Position numbers and translations under genes: made by a program. This document shows, in pieces, positions 51 through 8,748 of a stretch of DNA of 64,000 bases. The notes under the pieces are model-generated. The model saw only the letters and a list, made by a program, of their open reading frames with translations, made no database searches and was not told the DNA's origin. Each line of letters starts with the position of its first letter. Position 1 is the stretch's first letter. The DNA is taken from the IMG/VR virus record IMGVR_UViG_3300024272_000044; one strand, given 5' to 3'. This DNA comes from an uncultured virus (IMG/VR IMGVR_UViG_3300024272_000044). Its lineage: Duplodnaviria; Heunggongvirae; Uroviricota; Caudoviricetes.

Positions 51-1837
51 TTAGTATGTTATCGGTCTATGATTTAATTTTCTTAATTTTGACGCATAAT
101 CATAAGCATCAAAACCAATCTTTTGATTTTTTAACATTTCTCGTTCAAGTTGACACTGAACCCAATAATTATATGCGAGAGAAGAGTATCTATCCTTTCG
201 CATACCAGCTTTTTCTGTTATCTTAACATTTGTGCCTCTAATCTCATATTCAAGATTTATAAGCTCATATATAAGCAAAGTTGTCTGTATATATGGTAAC
301 TTATATTGCAATTGTTCATAAGCTGGCATTTTGCTATAACCTTTAATCTTATCTTTTAAAAATTCTTCCGCTTCAAATTCTGAAATAAGTAAATTAATTT
401 TACCATTCTGGAATCCACTACGAAGAAGCGTACATATTTCGGTATTAAATGAAGCACTTGCCTTGATTGACCATATTACCTTTGGAGCATTATACACCTT
501 GCATCTTTCAGCCATAGCCTTATCATTACAGCAGGAAAGAGCTGGATATAACTCGCCAGTAGTGGGGTCAACTATGTCTTGAATCAACATGTCAAAAACA
601 GAAAGTCCAACACCATTTGTATCGACAACTAAATCAGTACATTTATACATATCATATAATCTACGCACTACCAAAGCTAATTCATCAGTAGTTAATCCTT
701 CATGATTTTCCATATATATAACATTAGATGTATAATTATTATTATTAGTTGGAATAGCACTATTAATTATAATAGCACTTGCGTCATTGTTCTGTTTTTT
801 AGAAGCCATCAAAGCAATATCCACAGATAAAATTCTACGTTCATTTGTAACAAGTTCTGGTATTTTTAAATTTCTGCTGCTTCCAGCCAAAGAAGTTGGA
901 TAAACAGCATTCTTTAGCATTCTTCTTCCAGACACATCATCAAATGTGAAGAAAGCACCCTCTGTATCTCCAAACCATAAACAATCCATTTCCATAGAGA
1001 ATTTTAATGGGTCAAAGTCAGCTTCAGACATTTCATCCTCAATCTGCTCTCTAAACAAAAGACCCTCTTTAATAGATATCTGATATGGAAGACCACATAT
1101 GAAATATTTCTTTGTATCATCTAATAAGTTTACTACATACGCCTTAGCCTTATCAAAAGACCAGTGTGATTTGTACCATGCAGAACTCATATACAATTCT
1201 TTATTTCGTTCTTTTAAGTGTTTGTATTTTGGATTATGTAAATAGTTTGGTTCTCTAGGAGCTGTTAAGAATCGTCTTAATACTGTATTGATAGTATCCA
1301 AATCAACCATACGGAACTCATCAACCAACAGAATATTACATCTAGCACCACGACCAGAGTCAGATGCTGTAACAACTTTTATCCATGAACCATTAGCAAA
1401 TTCAATAACTGCTTTATTTATACCTACAGAAGCGTATGTAATTTCACGCTTTAAGTTTTCAGACCCCCACTCATGGGTCTTCATGAAGTCTTCTGTTATT
1501 TTTAAAAGAACTTCGTTTGCCTGAGAACGTGTTGCAGATGCTACACATATTTTTGTTTTAGGAAATAAAATACATCTAACAACACAAAATAAAGCTGTAA
1601 GGTAGGTTTTACCCTGCCCACGAGCAGCAATATACATAAAATAATGATTGTGCATCATTGCATACAATAATATCTTTTGAAATAATCTTAGATTTATATT
1701 TAAATAATCTTTTACAAATCTATGCGGATTATAACGATAAAAAGATGCTCAAGCTACCAATATGCAACACCATTCATTATTCTTTCTGATTTTTCATTTG
1801 CAAGTTGTCTTTCAGATTTTTTTTGTTGCATATTCAT
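51..1837 (-). CDS. terL: Terminase large subunit (YonF-like), interrupted by an 8-nt out-of-frame segment at 1749-1756
   Basis: Walker A ARGQGKT, Walker B LLVDE, C-terminal nuclease motifs (SVDIA, KDRYSS). GGGGGTGG RBS and ATG at 1837 give 27 codons ending W-TAG; the main frame is open from GCA at 1748 to 51. Joined product would be 592 aa. Confidence 0.9.
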
Positions 1838-1848
1838 AAAACCACCCC

Positions 1849-2865
1849 CTAATCATCATCTAAATTAGAAGCTGGATTTCCAAATATAGCATCAAATAAA
1901 ACTTCACTATTTTCCTCGTCACTATATTCTGGCTTTTCAACTGTATACTTTTTCATAAATTCTGTATATAAATTTGATAAACCATTTTTTAAGCCCATCA
2001 TTTTTGCTAAATGACCCTTAAAGAATATATCGATGTAATTACCTATTTTATCTACATCTTTCAATTCTTCATCAATTTCTGGAAGAGGACGAGTATTCTC
2101 CCATTTATCAATAAGCGTACCAAAAGTTTGATTATCAGCCATAGCGTCACCTTTGTTCTGCTTTGGTTGCAATTTACCAGAATCCATTAGCTTCTGGAAT
2201 GCAGCTGTAATATCTTTTGTTTCTTCGCCTTTTCGTAATGCTTTTAAGTTTTGTAATCTGTTAAAACATATATCCTTAAATACTTCTTCTTGAGCTTTTG
2301 TTTGACATTCATGTCTGGCAGTCCAATCTTCATATTCTCTTTTCAAGAATATATAATCCTCTGGCGTAAATCCAGCACCAAAAAACATAATTGTTTTTTC
2401 ATCCACTTCAAAATCATCATTATTAGATTCGACTGGAGCACTTATAGTTGGAACATTCAACAACTCTTCTTTTCTTAAAGTATCTTCATATGTTTCATTA
2501 TTACGATTATATTGAGTAAGCTGTATCATTCTCATATATTGAGTCATTGGAGATTTTGTTACATCGCTTTCTTTATAATTCCTAAGAGCGGAATTAAATA
2601 CATCTTCTTTATAATAGATGTCAAAAGCCATACATAATCTTTTAACAGCTTTTTTCTCTGGAAACGAATATCCGTCTTCCATATATTTATTATAATATTG
2701 TTGATATAATCTCTCCATACATTGTTTGCAAAATGGTAGTTTACCAGTTTTGCTATAAAATATACTATTAGAGCTATAATAATTTGTATTTACATATGAC
2801 TTACCACATAAAATACATTCATATTTTTCTTTTATTGTCTTTTCTTTAGCCATTGGCAACACCAC
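1849..2865 (-). CDS. Probable terminase small subunit (YonG-like) with N-terminal Zn finger
   Basis: CxxC...CxxC N-terminus; immediately upstream of terL. Confidence 0.6.
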   Translation of the reverse strand: MVLPMAKEKTIKEKYECILCGKSYVNTNYYSSNSIFYSKTGKLPFCKQCMERLYQQYYNKYMEDGYSFPEKKAVKRLCMAFDIYYKEDVFNSALRNYKESDVTKSPMTQYMRMIQLTQYNRNNETYEDTLRKEELLNVPTISAPVESNNDDFEVDEKTIMFFGAGFTPEDYIFLKREYEDWTARHECQTKAQEEVFKDICFNRLQNLKALRKGEETKDITAAFQKLMDSGKLQPKQNKGDAMADNQTFGTLIDKWENTRPLPEIDEELKDVDKIGNYIDIFFKGHLAKMMGLKNGLSNLYTEFMKKYTVEKPEYSDEENSEVLFDAIFGNPASNLDDD

Positions 2866-4163: not shown

Positions 4164-4238
4164 TTGCGGAGAGGTGGATTTGAACCACCGACCTCTAGCT
4201 TATGAGGCTAGCGAGCTACCAGACTGCTCTATCCCGCA
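4164..4238 (-). tRNA. tRNA-Met(CAT), initiator-like body with atypical anticodon stem
   Basis: Cloverleaf; anticodon arm CTAGC-CTCATAA-GCTAG; T arm GGTGG-TTCAAAT-CCACC; no encoded CCA. Confidence 0.85.
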
Positions 4239-4243
4239 TAAAA

Positions 4244-4316
4244 TGGAGCATAAGGGGGTCGAACCCTTGACCTCCTGCGTGCAAGGCAGGCGCTCTCCCA
4301 ACTGAGCTAACACCCC
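4244..4316 (-). tRNA. tRNA-Ala(TGC)
   Basis: GGGGTGTTAGCTCAG...CCTGC-CTTGCAC-GCAGG...GTTCGA; G3:U70 pair. Confidence 0.95.
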
Positions 4317-4321
4317 ATGAA

Positions 4322-4394
4322 CTCTTCTTGTTGGACTTGAACCAACGACACTTCGGTTAACAGCCGAATGCTCTACCTACTGAGCTAAAGAAGA
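4322..4394 (-). tRNA. tRNA-Asn(GTT)
   Basis: TTCGG-CTGTTAA-CCGAA anticodon arm, canonical cloverleaf. Confidence 0.95.
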
Positions 4395-4407
4395 ATATTA
4401 TAAATCA

Positions 4408-4488
4408 AGCTGATGGTGAGATTCGAACTCACGTACCTTTCGGAGTAGATTACAAATCTACCGCAATTAACCACTATGCGACACCAGC
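4408..4488 (-). tRNA. tRNA-Thr(TGT) with an extended variable arm
   Basis: GTAGA-TTTGTAA-TCTAC arm puts TGT at 34-36; G1-C72 and C2-G71; 12-nt variable region TCCGAAAGGTAC. Confidence 0.75.
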
Positions 4489-4497
4489 ATAAAAAAA

Positions 4498-4581
4498 CGC
4501 TGTGCCTGAGACTTGAACTCAGATATCCTTTCGGAATGGCGGTTTTCAAGACCGCTGCTGTACCAATTGAGCCAACACAGC
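4498..4581 (-). tRNA. tRNA-Ser(TGA)
   Basis: GCGGT-CTTGAAA-ACCGC, long variable arm, G73. Confidence 0.9.
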
Positions 4582-4775
4582 AAATTTGCAAGATATTCAT
4601 GTCTTGCTCATGGCTTCTCACTATTTCTAATGCGTAGTGTACCGCAATACCTCTTTCACCTTGACGTGTCAAATGCATGACTACTGAGTACGCCCCAGCT
4701 TTTCCGTTATTCTGCTCATATTTTCATTCTCCGCAGCAGAGAACGCTACCATAGGTTTTACGTCTCTATGGCGAC
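4582..4775 (-). ncRNA. Candidate structured RNA inside the tRNA cluster
   Basis: GC-richer ~190-nt spacer with several hairpins (GCCATAG/CTATGGT, TTCTC/GAGAA, GCAAGA/TCTTGC); no credible ORF. Confidence 0.5.
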
Positions 4776-4780
4776 AAAAA

Positions 4781-4871
4781 CGATAAGGGTGGGCTACGAC
4801 CCCACGGTACTTTTAAACAAAGTACGCCAGATTAGCAATCTGGTGCATTAAACCAGCTCTGCCACCTTATC
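4781..4871 (-). tRNA. tRNA-Ser(GCT)
   Basis: CCAGA-TTGCTAA-TCTGG, long variable arm; atypical T loop GTCGTAG. Confidence 0.85.
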
Positions 4872-4879
4872 AAAACAAA

Positions 4880-4952
4880 TCACCCTGAGGGGAATCGAAC
4901 CCCTGACGCATCCGTGAAAGGGATGTAACTTAAACCACTTGTCCACAGGGCG
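4880..4952 (-). tRNA. tRNA-Glu(TTC)
   Basis: CATCC-CTTTCAC-GGATG anticodon arm, GTTCGATTC T loop. Confidence 0.9.
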
Positions 4953-4956
4953 ATAA

Positions 4957-5028
4957 CGACTCTAGCGAGAATCGAACTCGCCTTTCTAGCGTGACAGGCT
5001 AGTGTACTAACCGATATACTATAGAGCC
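4957..5028 (-). tRNA. tRNA-Asp(GTC)
   Basis: CTAGC-CTGTCAC-GCTAG anticodon arm, G73. Confidence 0.92.
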
Positions 5029-5184
5029 AAAAAAGCAGAGCACCCACAATTAAGTAAATACTCCGCCAAAGAAAGGTTATAAAAAATGAATGAAAAGAAG
5101 TACCACATATTACCAAAGATAATAAGTGGCTATATATAAACAGTGTTTCCACTGATATATAGCAGTTAAGCTATTAATATAACG

Positions 5185-5829: not shown

Positions 5830-8748
5830 TTAATCGCTACTGATTTTTTTATTTTTTAAATATGCACGTTTATTCTGCTTTGCTTTAAGCATTTTCTTAT
5901 ATTCGTAATCACAAGTTTCACATCTACAAGTTTTTAAATGCTTCTTATCGTTTTCAACTTCTATCCATTCTCCACAATCAACACATTTAATTGCTTTTGT
6001 TTTTGGTTTGCAATTATTATTTATTAAATTATCAACTATATATTTACCATAGCAAAACCAAAGCACACTCTTATGGCTACTAGGTTTAATATGATATAAT
6101 AATTTAACTAAAATATCTGTTACTTCCAAATCAGAATATCCAAACTGAGAAAGCTCATATCTAATTTCATTTGCAATCTTCTTAAAGAACAAATCTTGTT
6201 TTAATTGTGTATTATTTAATAATTCACCCCTTATCATATCTGCACATTCCATATTAACTTTAAAATGATATTTATTATTTAATTCAAAATATTTAACAAT
6301 CATTGGGTCAGACAACTCATCATTAACTGTTCCATTTTTATTAAATGCAATTTTACATTCCACATCTGGATTACTTACTAATTTTTTATAATCAATATTA
6401 CCAAGTTTATTACCATCATATCCTTTTAAGTTTCTACAATTAATTCTTGGATTTTTGATTTTAGTTTCAAGTTTATTTACAAAGCTTTCATTTGCATCTT
6501 CAACCTGAGAATCACCCTTATCCTTTGCATATACGAAAAAGTGTGGCACATTATCTTTTGTAAAATTAATAATCTCTTCATGAACAGAATCTGGTCTTTC
6601 TGGTTTATATAATGTTTTTGCATAGTCAATAACAAAGTTGTTCTCCATGCACAATAACTTAACTAAATTTATTGCTCTTTGTTTCTCTTCTTCTGTTCCA
6701 CTAATAAAAACATCACTATTCCAAATTTTAGAAATATTATTACTATAAATCCCAATATTGCCACCAACAAAAGCTGCATTTAATCCATTATAAATGGTCT
6801 GATTATTTAATTGAATAGGAGAAGCTTTTTTCATATTGTAATATAGTGGCACAATGCCTTTCATATTTCTTTCTGCTACATCAACTATACTTTTATCAGC
6901 TACTACTAAACTCTTATCTCCATCAACGTCAAACTGAAGAATCTTACTAATTAAATCATGACAGCTTGTATAAATAGCATCTGTTCCAAACCATTCACGA
7001 ATTTGCTGTTGACGTTCTTTATATTTATTACAAGCAATATTTGTTCTAATTGCATGTTCTTTATATAAATGAGGACTTCTTAAACAATCCAGCTTATCGT
7101 CTTTTTTAAACAGCCAGCAAAAAACTTCTCCATCGTCTAATAATCCTTTTGGATTTTCAATTCCCATAAACCAATGTTCACAAGCCGCATACAAGTCTGG
7201 GAGTATAAATGTATATTTTCCTTTTATTGCTAAACTACCAGACCTATATCTTTTTACCAAGCTATCTTTTATTTCTCTTAAAGTGATTTTCATATATTCA
7301 TCATTTAATAATGACGGATACAAATTAATAGCTTGTTGCAAATATGTCATATTATCATTATATGGAGTAATGCCAAATGCTCTTTTAATACCATTAAGAG
7401 TTTTTAAATCGTCTAAGTTATTTTTAGACTTCTCAATAATATTGTCTATTTCTTCATCTGTAATATCAGTAAGTGTTTGAAGCATTTGATAATTAATTGT
7501 TGCATCCTTAATCTTATCTTCTTCCATATTGGTATATCCAGCAGAGCAACCATACTTCTTATAATATCCCTTGTACTGTTCCCAAGAATCATAATACTTA
7601 CACATCTTAAACTGAGACTTTGTAAATATAATCTGAATATCTTCTGCTATTACATCATGTTCAACACCATATATGTCTTTAATTATTGGAGAACAATTAT
7701 TTTCTTTAATAAATTTCAAATAATCAAAAGAACCAAGCAATCCTTTTACCCAAGGAAGACGAACCATTCTGTTCTTGCCCATACATGGCAACATCATACC
7801 AGCACCATCTGTATGTTCAATTGGTACATAATCAGATATACGTTTAATAGAATAATCAACATCATCTACCAAATCATAAGTTCCAAATACGTCAGTTGCA
7901 AAATCATTTACCACAATCGTCTTATCAATATCAAACTCTTTCCAAACATCTGTAGCTGAGTTTGTTAAAGCCATATACGCTAAATGCTTATTTGGATTAT
8001 TACCACCTTTTTCATTAATAGAATCAATTGTAAGTCCACACATAATTGTCTTCTCATATTTTTTCCAAACAGATTCTTTTACGAATACTGTTTTCTTTGT
8101 TCTAATCTGACCAGCAGAAGATGTAAAGTAAATATATTTTTCTCCCTTATATGTAAATCCATGATAAATTAAGTCCTTAATAATATCAAAGTAATATACC
8201 TGCACAACCATAAAATCTTCTGTTAATTCATCCTGCTTTGCTCCAATCATTCTTGTAAAAGCAGAATCAAATACAGATATAATTTTATTATTATTAAATG
8301 GTTCATTTGCAAATTTAAGAATATCTCCTTTTGAACCAGATGGATTTAAATTTCTTAATTCTCTAATATGATGTTTTCCATTTGTAGATATGTTTGCTTC
8401 AATTTTATTTGATAATAAATCTAATAATCTATCTTTTGATTCTTTTATTTTCTTATTCTTTAGTTTCACTAATTCTCTCACTCTACAATAATCCATTCCA
8501 AGAGTAAGCAAAGTATGTTTATCTTCTCCCCAAGAACTATAATCATAATCTTTATTTGCAATTAGTTCTAAATCATTTTTATCAATTCCATATTTAGAAA
8601 ACTCATTTATAATTTCATTTTCTTTTTTCTTTAATTCATTTCTTTCAATTCTAAGCTTATGATTAAACCAATGAAGGTAAGCTTCTTTATTACTATAGAA
8701 GTTTCCAGTATCAACACTTAGAATCTGAACCTGAACATCCAAGCTCAT
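5830..8748 (-). CDS. YonO-like single-subunit double-psi-barrel RNA polymerase
   Basis: 972 aa; catalytic FDVDGD, TDGAG, RLPWVKG and RSPH motifs; C-terminal Zn finger; SPbeta-like synteny. Confidence 0.9.
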   Translation of the reverse strand: MSLDVQVQILSVDTGNFYSNKEAYLHWFNHKLRIERNELKKKENEIINEFSKYGIDKNDLELIANKDYDYSSWGEDKHTLLTLGMDYCRVRELVKLKNKKIKESKDRLLDLLSNKIEANISTNGKHHIRELRNLNPSGSKGDILKFANEPFNNNKIISVFDSAFTRMIGAKQDELTEDFMVVQVYYFDIIKDLIYHGFTYKGEKYIYFTSSAGQIRTKKTVFVKESVWKKYEKTIMCGLTIDSINEKGGNNPNKHLAYMALTNSATDVWKEFDIDKTIVVNDFATDVFGTYDLVDDVDYSIKRISDYVPIEHTDGAGMMLPCMGKNRMVRLPWVKGLLGSFDYLKFIKENNCSPIIKDIYGVEHDVIAEDIQIIFTKSQFKMCKYYDSWEQYKGYYKKYGCSAGYTNMEEDKIKDATINYQMLQTLTDITDEEIDNIIEKSKNNLDDLKTLNGIKRAFGITPYNDNMTYLQQAINLYPSLLNDEYMKITLREIKDSLVKRYRSGSLAIKGKYTFILPDLYAACEHWFMGIENPKGLLDDGEVFCWLFKKDDKLDCLRSPHLYKEHAIRTNIACNKYKERQQQIREWFGTDAIYTSCHDLISKILQFDVDGDKSLVVADKSIVDVAERNMKGIVPLYYNMKKASPIQLNNQTIYNGLNAAFVGGNIGIYSNNISKIWNSDVFISGTEEEKQRAINLVKLLCMENNFVIDYAKTLYKPERPDSVHEEIINFTKDNVPHFFVYAKDKGDSQVEDANESFVNKLETKIKNPRINCRNLKGYDGNKLGNIDYKKLVSNPDVECKIAFNKNGTVNDELSDPMIVKYFELNNKYHFKVNMECADMIRGELLNNTQLKQDLFFKKIANEIRYELSQFGYSDLEVTDILVKLLYHIKPSSHKSVLWFCYGKYIVDNLINNNCKPKTKAIKCVDCGEWIEVENDKKHLKTCRCETCDYEYKKMLKAKQNKRAYLKNKKISSD

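Follow-up and report, generated by a model that had tools for sequence, protein, structure and literature searches.

Natural translational bypassing has been documented in phage T4 gene 60 and its homologues, in one group of Streptomyces phage terminases and in yeast mitochondria. The terminase gap of Hau3, with its UUA changed to UAA, was bypassed in E. coli, as seen by mass spectrometry (PMC10732093, sections 3.5-3.6). Terminase gaps of this phiHau3 type measure 10 and 7 nt, and the StrepC.1 and S. catenulae prophages also belong to the group. For MobA a hit-and-run pattern is described in which the gap blocks self-nicking (bioRxiv 2022.08.31.505936). Hopping over an in-frame stop was not known in nature at the time of a 2016 review (PMC5009743).

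The locus treated here lies in the window, by which we mean the whole stretch of 64,000 nt that was analysed, from an uncultured virus (IMG/VR record IMGVR_UViG_3300024272_000044). As in Streptomyces phage phiHau3, a short gap occurs in a large terminase gene, a slow A-site codon directly follows the take-off codon, Trp is at or beside the take-off, and gapped homologues are a minority (3/100 in the phiHau3 family).

The gap in the window's terL

The virus record comprises 153,181 bases, is rated 100% complete and holds a single terL gene. The protein is 48% identical to YonF of SPbeta, with the same order of small terminase-like gene, terL and portal; Pfam returns Terminase_6N, PHROGs agree on a large terminase and the top fold match is T4 gp17. 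A PDB sequence search with terL gave no match. The gene is an SPbeta YonF-like large terminase. Since related terL genes were found, among the matches listed, in Bacillota assemblies (many Lachnospiraceae, other Clostridia), a clostridial host is likely. The 338-aa gene upstream of terL (1849..2865, minus strand) occupies the position of SPbeta yonG and matches PHROG 3314, of unknown function; by position it is a probable small terminase.

On the minus strand the critical segment reads TAT TGG TAG CT TGA GCA TCT TTT TAT CGT. The 5′ segment of terL (1754..1837), conserved in gapped and intact relatives, has 27 codons from ATG 1837, or 25 from a second in-frame ATG at 1831 that is the start used by the closest relatives. 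It ends at the take-off codon TGG (Trp; 1757..1759), which lies within the N-terminal helix at a position that is Trp in 80/98 intact proteins. The 8-nt coding gap TAGCTTGA (1749..1756) consists of the stop TAG (1756-1754), the spacer CT and the landing triplet TGA (1751-1749), and is followed by the resume codon GCA (Ala; 1746..1748), Ala being the most frequent residue here (52/98 intact relatives). The main frame of 565 codons (51..1748) encodes the ATPase and nuclease domains and is the sole terL copy of the genome; its Walker A motif (AARGQGKT, 1605..1628) is the site of a group I intron-like insertion in many relatives and is unoccupied here.

The first-pass annotation had placed an 8-nt gap between the 27-codon ORF (1837-1754) and the 565-codon frame (1748-51). 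This is borne out by tblastn against an intact relative, in which the window's terL has exactly 8 extra bases at 1756-1749, and by an independent contig described below; P0002, an intact terL relative that is 86% identical, has one continuous frame across the gap position. Its further statement that both usable frames are stopped also holds, as a -1 or +2 slip at TGG runs into TGA and readthrough of TAG remains out of frame. One conserved protein corresponds to two ORFs with a non-coding gap between them, one of the features by which bypassing is recognised.

The start of the 5′ segment is strong. A Shine-Dalgarno-like run at 1841..1849 (minus strand) pairs at -14.0 kcal/mol for ATG 1837, or at -15.0 in the survey of starts, a value equalled by <0.5% of 217 intact starts (pairing energies use the anti-Shine-Dalgarno motif). 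Between gap and Walker A we found no in-frame start with a Shine-Dalgarno, the best pairing of any in-frame start candidate before Walker A being -2.4 vs -14.0 kcal/mol for ATG 1837. The internal TTG of the ORF track (1665..1667, minus strand), already judged unsuitable in the first-pass annotation, indeed has no Shine-Dalgarno, and a start there would lose Y, R, N, P, L and Q, residues between the gap and this first internal TTG that are invariant and kept in gap carriers.

Logan contigs from four runs contain no indel at the gap. One from another study (X8) bridges it with two other letters and 0 gaps, and X1 covers the whole stretch with no difference, although it may be the source of the record. 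X6 and X9 extend only 27 and 11 bases beyond the gap and fall below our bridging rule of 31 bases past it. Three IMG/VR contigs are identical at this locus, possibly from one campaign. A relative with an 88% identical protein (L134) carries the same 8 bases with downstream synonymous divergence saturated. In an X8 contig of a relative, 1754-1752 are altered so that stop and spacer would become TAA AA before an unchanged landing TGA; this variant is a hint only, from a single short contig at depth 3.9, and stands outside the gap types counted below. A genome comparison with five relatives, which covered 94/203 ORFs, returned the terL gap as the only credible break, its other matches being shadow frames and one N-terminal offset. 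An assembly slip is very unlikely as the source of the 8 nt; the gap is real, recurrent and selected.

Other features of the genome were noted in passing. Eight tRNA genes (Met, Ala, Asn, Thr, two Ser, Glu, Asp; no tRNA-Trp) lie at 4164-5029 (minus strand), upstream of the packaging genes. A 972-aa protein encoded at 5830-8748 (minus strand) has a weak Pfam RdRP match; we take it to be probably the single-subunit RNA polymerase (YonO type) that SPbeta-like phages encode. Beyond the window, ARAGORN predicts a tRNA whose anticodon is UUA, ochre (G000:C1 45563-45634, minus strand), beside tRNA-Gln and tRNA-Ile; its anticodon arm is irregular, it looks like a decayed tRNA-Lys, and the five relatives have none. 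Stop usage is standard (124 TAA, 26 TAG and 11 TGA among ORFs >=90 aa). An alternative genetic code or suppressor tRNA was considered and rejected on this stop usage and on finding no suppressor in G001-G005. One relative (G005:C1) has two irregularities, at ~3296 and 119927: one gene may contain a -1 frameshift, and two short genes that resemble each other are separated by a stop.

Gapped relatives and the pattern of the gaps

We classified 248 distinct N-termini of relatives, 27 gapped and 221 intact; the ratio should not be read as a frequency, because part of the searches was biased towards gaps and part towards intact genes. IMG/VR contains over 500 relatives. An unbiased protein search gave 78 loci among the matches listed; 77 had an N-terminus and 21 of these were gapped, with 10 gap types. 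DNA patterns requiring TGG plus TAA, TAG, TGA or TGG added six more types; the landing triplet was left unconstrained in every search pattern. The first viral DNA pattern matched terL in 13/13 cases and the metagenome pattern in 13/23, chance matches being dropped, and loci without an N-terminal anchor were left out (40/312 and 43/178). DNA patterns for the second site described below matched terL in 13/38 viral cases and yielded no further gap type. A further 77 distinct N-termini came from searches built around L135 and L080; none had a gap (2 were falsely flagged). A scan of genome contigs (best 80 of 87), with a query that favoured intact genes, found no gapped one.

The resulting set has 16 different gap sequences of 4-12 nt, at two nearby codons. 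At site 1, after the Trp codon, are TAGG, TGAGG, TAGTGA, TAGATGA, TAGCTTGA, TAGAGTGA, TAGAATGA, TAAATTGT, TAAATATGC and TAGCAACGG, together with three 12-mers that all end in TGG. At site 2, six codons downstream of site 1, are CAT|TAGCAT, CAT|TAGCAA and TAT|TGAC. The first triplet is an in-frame stop in 16/16 types, with TAG, TAA and TGA all occurring, a rule that already held in all 10 types of the unbiased search. In 15/16 the last triplet shares two or all three of its bases with the take-off codon, always including the middle one: TGG is paired with TGG, TGA, TGC, TGT, AGG or CGG, and CAT with CAT or CAA. In the window, landing UGA and take-off UGG match at 2/3 positions. When the site shifts six codons downstream, the landing triplet follows the identity of the new take-off codon. 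The exception is L057 (TAT|TGAC), with a literal match of 1/3, where GAC suits take-off TAT only when wobble pairing of Tyr is allowed. By chance the match would have a product probability of 10^-5.2 over the five most conservative units and ~10^-10.8 over the ten rule-meeting units; the latter is the total less the L057 term, and the match criterion was chosen after the data had been seen. In place of the conserved UGG-UAG-NN-UG(A/G) that had been anticipated for relatives, it is the design that is conserved, recurring in 16 gap types, and not the sequence; 221/248 N-termini have no gap at all.

Gap lengths of 4, 5, 6, 7, 8, 9 and 12 nt represent all three frames, and in five gap types, the window's included, the terL frame contains a TGA; one slip or one readthrough event therefore does not account for the whole set. 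For the 4, 5, 9 and 12 nt types and TAAATTGT, slip or readthrough is also possible and would add 1-4 residues. Exact removal of the gap restores the usual residue (Ala, Thr, Gly).

Two groups of relatives deserve separate mention. In the L058 group (six distinct sequences) terL apparently starts from a TTG behind a strong Shine-Dalgarno and contains a perfect CAT|TAG CAT gap, which makes it the cleanest candidate for a natural in-frame stop-hop. In the L425 group (L425, L427-L445) the small-terminase-like ORF ends ~250 nt early (250 aa), which could be a split, a frameshift or another gap.

Substitution patterns indicate that gapped terL genes remain under purifying selection. Downstream of the gap, the 11 gap-gap pairs that allowed computation have dN/dS values of 0.013-0.133 (2 further pairs were saturated), compared with 0.006-0.086 in 3 intact pairs, and the 18 codons before the gap show few replacements and mostly silent changes. 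AlphaFold modelling based on 98 intact proteins (mean pLDDT 88) places residues 4-28, and the junction among them, in one helix, with the second gap site at the helix end; residues 13-47 have no indel in 96/98 intact proteins.

On a tree of the relatives, 11 changes of gap status are needed (shuffled mean 24.6), 8 of them forced by well-supported (starred) branches, and several gapped rows have intact sisters beside them. The quick tree had 169 rows with the first 40 columns excluded, L150 and L226 dropped, and L080 and L135 on long branches. It is blind to gain vs loss vs lateral transfer, and the 11 changes may be spread or losses and not 11 inventions.

Gapped genes tend to have stronger ribosome-binding sites: the median Shine-Dalgarno energy is -13.0 kcal/mol in gapped (n=27) vs -8.8 in intact genes (n=217), the best-pairing in-frame start being taken for both classes and 4/248 without a start dropped. 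In 10/11 gapped lineages the Shine-Dalgarno is stronger than in the three nearest intact genes (Wilcoxon p 0.003); in the L004 group the link runs the other way. On independent pairs the median p is 0.03 at -12, and 0.125 at -11 and -10. The stronger sites suggest that the cost of the gap is being compensated for, more than that the gap serves to limit terminase output, as the first-pass annotation had proposed.

The codon before take-off has a pyrimidine first and last in 18/18 site-1 sequences and encodes Tyr in 15/18 vs 27/128 intact sequences (independent pairs, median p 0.03). At synonymous sites of the eight codons preceding take-off (1760..1783 of the window, minus strand), carriers of the window's clade agree at 155/189 (0.82) vs 86/157 (0.55) for carrier-intact comparisons; over all site-1 pairs the likeness is only 0.55 vs 0.49. 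The pyrimidine-flanked codon and the silent-site likeness could be selected hop helpers (a cis signal) or a 5′ patch co-inherited with the gap. Gaps did not fold better than random gaps under the same constraints (combined p 0.22-0.35), though those of L048, L145 and L011 fold well individually. A test for a 5′ hairpin showed no effect after control for the Ala codon (p 0.50), internal Shine-Dalgarno motifs before take-off were not in excess (p 0.27), and a promoter scan was at chance level (13 vs 9.6 +/- 2.9).

The proposed hop and competing explanations

We consider it probable that terL is made as one protein through a short ribosomal hop of peptidyl-tRNA-Trp from UGG over UAG to UGA. Ribosomes would initiate at the strong site (1837/1831) and stall when UAG enters the A site, peptidyl-tRNA-Trp still being paired with UGG; many would probably terminate there. 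In a fraction the anticodon would release UGG, slide 8 nt and re-pair on UGA in the P site, where pairing is checked less strictly and two of the three positions match; resumption at GCA would then give the same protein as in intact relatives, and the tryptic peptide predicted across the junction does not differ from that of P0002. The first-pass annotation had proposed these take-off, landing and resume codons; the 16 stop-first gaps and the purifying selection lend them strong comparative support, and the hop itself is what we infer from these comparisons. One consideration counts against a hop as regards yield: unaided stop-hops are described as low-level (bioRxiv 2024.12.09.627546). Four other explanations are less probable, and each leaves the match between take-off and landing unexplained.

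The 27-residue helix might be a separate peptide, with the rest made by re-initiation after the stop and the two pieces assembling. Both pieces are conserved, and split genes made by endonucleases are known (bioRxiv 2022.08.31.505936). A candidate restart is at hand in the NTG that overlaps TGA in the TGA-type gaps, but this NTG is out of frame and is missing in several types. From the gap to Walker A no in-frame start has a Shine-Dalgarno, and the first TTG, 28 codons on, would sacrifice the invariant residues that gap carriers keep; nor does a split account for the landing triplet resembling the take-off codon. We regard such a split as improbable, with only a small chance of being right.

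Much the same small chance attaches to excision of the gap from the RNA, as a micro-intron or through excision in trans by one of the group I ribozymes that abound here. Group I intron-like insertions are frequent in terL of these phages, and a cut shifted by one base gives U|...G in 14/17 loci with Trp preserved. The U|G rule fails, however, for L139 and L058, and in L049 the Trp would be destroyed; Ser would follow Trp in 9 types vs 1/144 intact N-termini. Self-splicing is impossible for 4-12 nt, a length that leaves no room for the ribozyme core of some hundred bases that a group I intron has. Splicing, moreover, needs no in-frame stop at the first codon, and on the tree the presence of a gap shows no link to introns (median p 1).

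The insertions themselves were seen in terL of many relatives (L005, L012, L049, L057, L080, L021). They break the frame, measure ~260-1340 nt and lie at Walker A and several other sites; the two tested carry LAGLIDADG ORFs. An association of the gap with these introns had a raw Fisher p of 0.03 for the Walker A intron, and was rejected when it was lost on independent pairs.

Slightly less probable still is compound recoding without a hop, in which a -1 or +2 slip at UGG is followed by readthrough of UGA (or suppression combined with a slip), with 2-3 residues added. Low-level reading of UGA by tRNA-Trp, described in PMC13092985, would help here, as would the ARAGORN call with a UUA anticodon. 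The gene so called resembles a decayed tRNA, the gap carriers G002-G004 lack it, and stop usage in the genome is standard. The scheme also requires two rare events, differing for each gap length, and an insertion in mid-helix where intact proteins tolerate almost none.

The least probable explanation, a dead allele or assembly error in a phage that is defective or borrows a terminase, fits the 221/248 relative N-termini without a gap and a blastn search of 50,697 phage records that found no gapped terL in a cultured phage, but is already largely refuted by the independent contig that bridges the gap, the same gap in a synonymous-saturated relative, dN/dS as low as in intact genes, the recurrence of the design rule, and no other credible broken gene in the genome (94/203 ORFs covered).

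Origin of the gaps and comparison with known systems

The window has no endonuclease near terL. In one gapped relative (L135) a 312-aa endonuclease (PHROG 559, E 7e-69) lies between the small-terminase-like gene and terL, which has a new Shine-Dalgarno and start beside it; an intact relative of this phage (L388) is without nuclease and without gap. Homologues of the L135 nuclease were beside terL in 0/42 cases. Possible remnants elsewhere are a doubled terL start in L143, a second Shine-Dalgarno within the extended N-terminus of the L004 group, and additional intergenic DNA in L057 and L048; intergenic DNA >30 nt occurs in 4/27 gapped vs 5/173 intact loci (p 0.02), and the intergenic coding remnant of L057 had no match in the sequences searched. 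These remnants and the L135 nuclease resemble the MobA hit-and-run pattern. An intact endonuclease at the junction is, however, found at one gapped locus (L135) and at two intact loci (L029, L183), so the link of gap to endonuclease is suggestive only. We give about even odds to the idea that the gaps came with homing-endonuclease cassettes at the terS/terL junction, shielded the gene from cutting and persisted after loss of the nuclease.

Of the nucleases beside intact genes, one (L241:1764-2477, from the same record as L029) is a free-standing GIY-YIG/NUMOD endonuclease at the small-terminase/terL junction; that of L183 resembles the L135 nuclease and ends in a small-terminase C-terminal tail.

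More generally, we lean, with considerable reserve, towards the view that ordinary bacterial ribosomes hop across natural gaps of 4-12 nt that open with a stop, landing even on mismatched or stop triplets and needing no RNA stimulators, efficiently enough to support a gene essential to the phage. Among SPbeta-like gut phages such gaps would have arisen or spread on 8 or more occasions, at two codons close together, would be paid for by a stronger ribosome-binding site and would probably be patches of endonuclease immunity, and the genes would be mis-annotated as broken; apparent pseudogenes in phage genomes could then be functional. The gaps form an allelic series in one essential gene, with 16 sequences, three stops, perfect and mismatched landings, three frames and intact sisters, which opens the requirements for re-pairing in the P site, and the least signal that a hop needs, to direct testing in a Bacillota host. 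Among titles and abstracts (most subscription journals being outside coverage) we found no description of stop-led gaps in SPbeta-like terminases.

Unlike phiHau3, where the trigger is UUA, a rare codon linked to the development of the host, all types here have a true stop (TAG, TAA or TGA). The terminase is of another family, the site is in an N-terminal helix and the host is probably of the Bacillota; there are 16 gap sequences at two codons, and the landing is often mismatched and sometimes itself a stop.

With T4 gene 60 and the MobA cassettes (bioRxiv 2022.08.31.505936; PMC5009743) the gaps share a stop directly after take-off, a landing directly before the resume codon, an indel-intolerant residue position, a take-off that moves between nearby codons and a possible homing-endonuclease origin with the nuclease later lost. 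The T4 gap is 50 nt long in a topoisomerase gene, as against 4-12 nt here and 8 nt in the window's terL, and comes with a take-off stem-loop, a 5′ stem-loop and a mini-Shine-Dalgarno; we detected no conserved stem-loops or mini-Shine-Dalgarno. Compared with both systems, the landing is often mismatched beyond synonymous wobble, and a nuclease, of a different family, adjoins one gapped locus only.

CAT|TAG CAT corresponds exactly to the design known as 'nine nucleotides, one amino acid' among the synthetic E. coli stop-hops described in PMC5009743 and bioRxiv 2024.12.09.627546, which likewise do not need stimulators; here the setting is a natural, essential gene. The byps of Magnusiomyces mitochondria, as outlined in PMC5009743, are also short, context-free inserts with an imperfect match of take-off and landing, but involve an unused sense codon and relaxed mitochondrial ribosomes, in contrast to the bacterial ribosome and stop codons here. 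Judged on its sequence features, the terL gap appears to work like translational bypassing and belongs neither with the MobA cassettes nor with the UUA-type gaps, the closest systems being the phiHau3 terminase and T4 gene 60.
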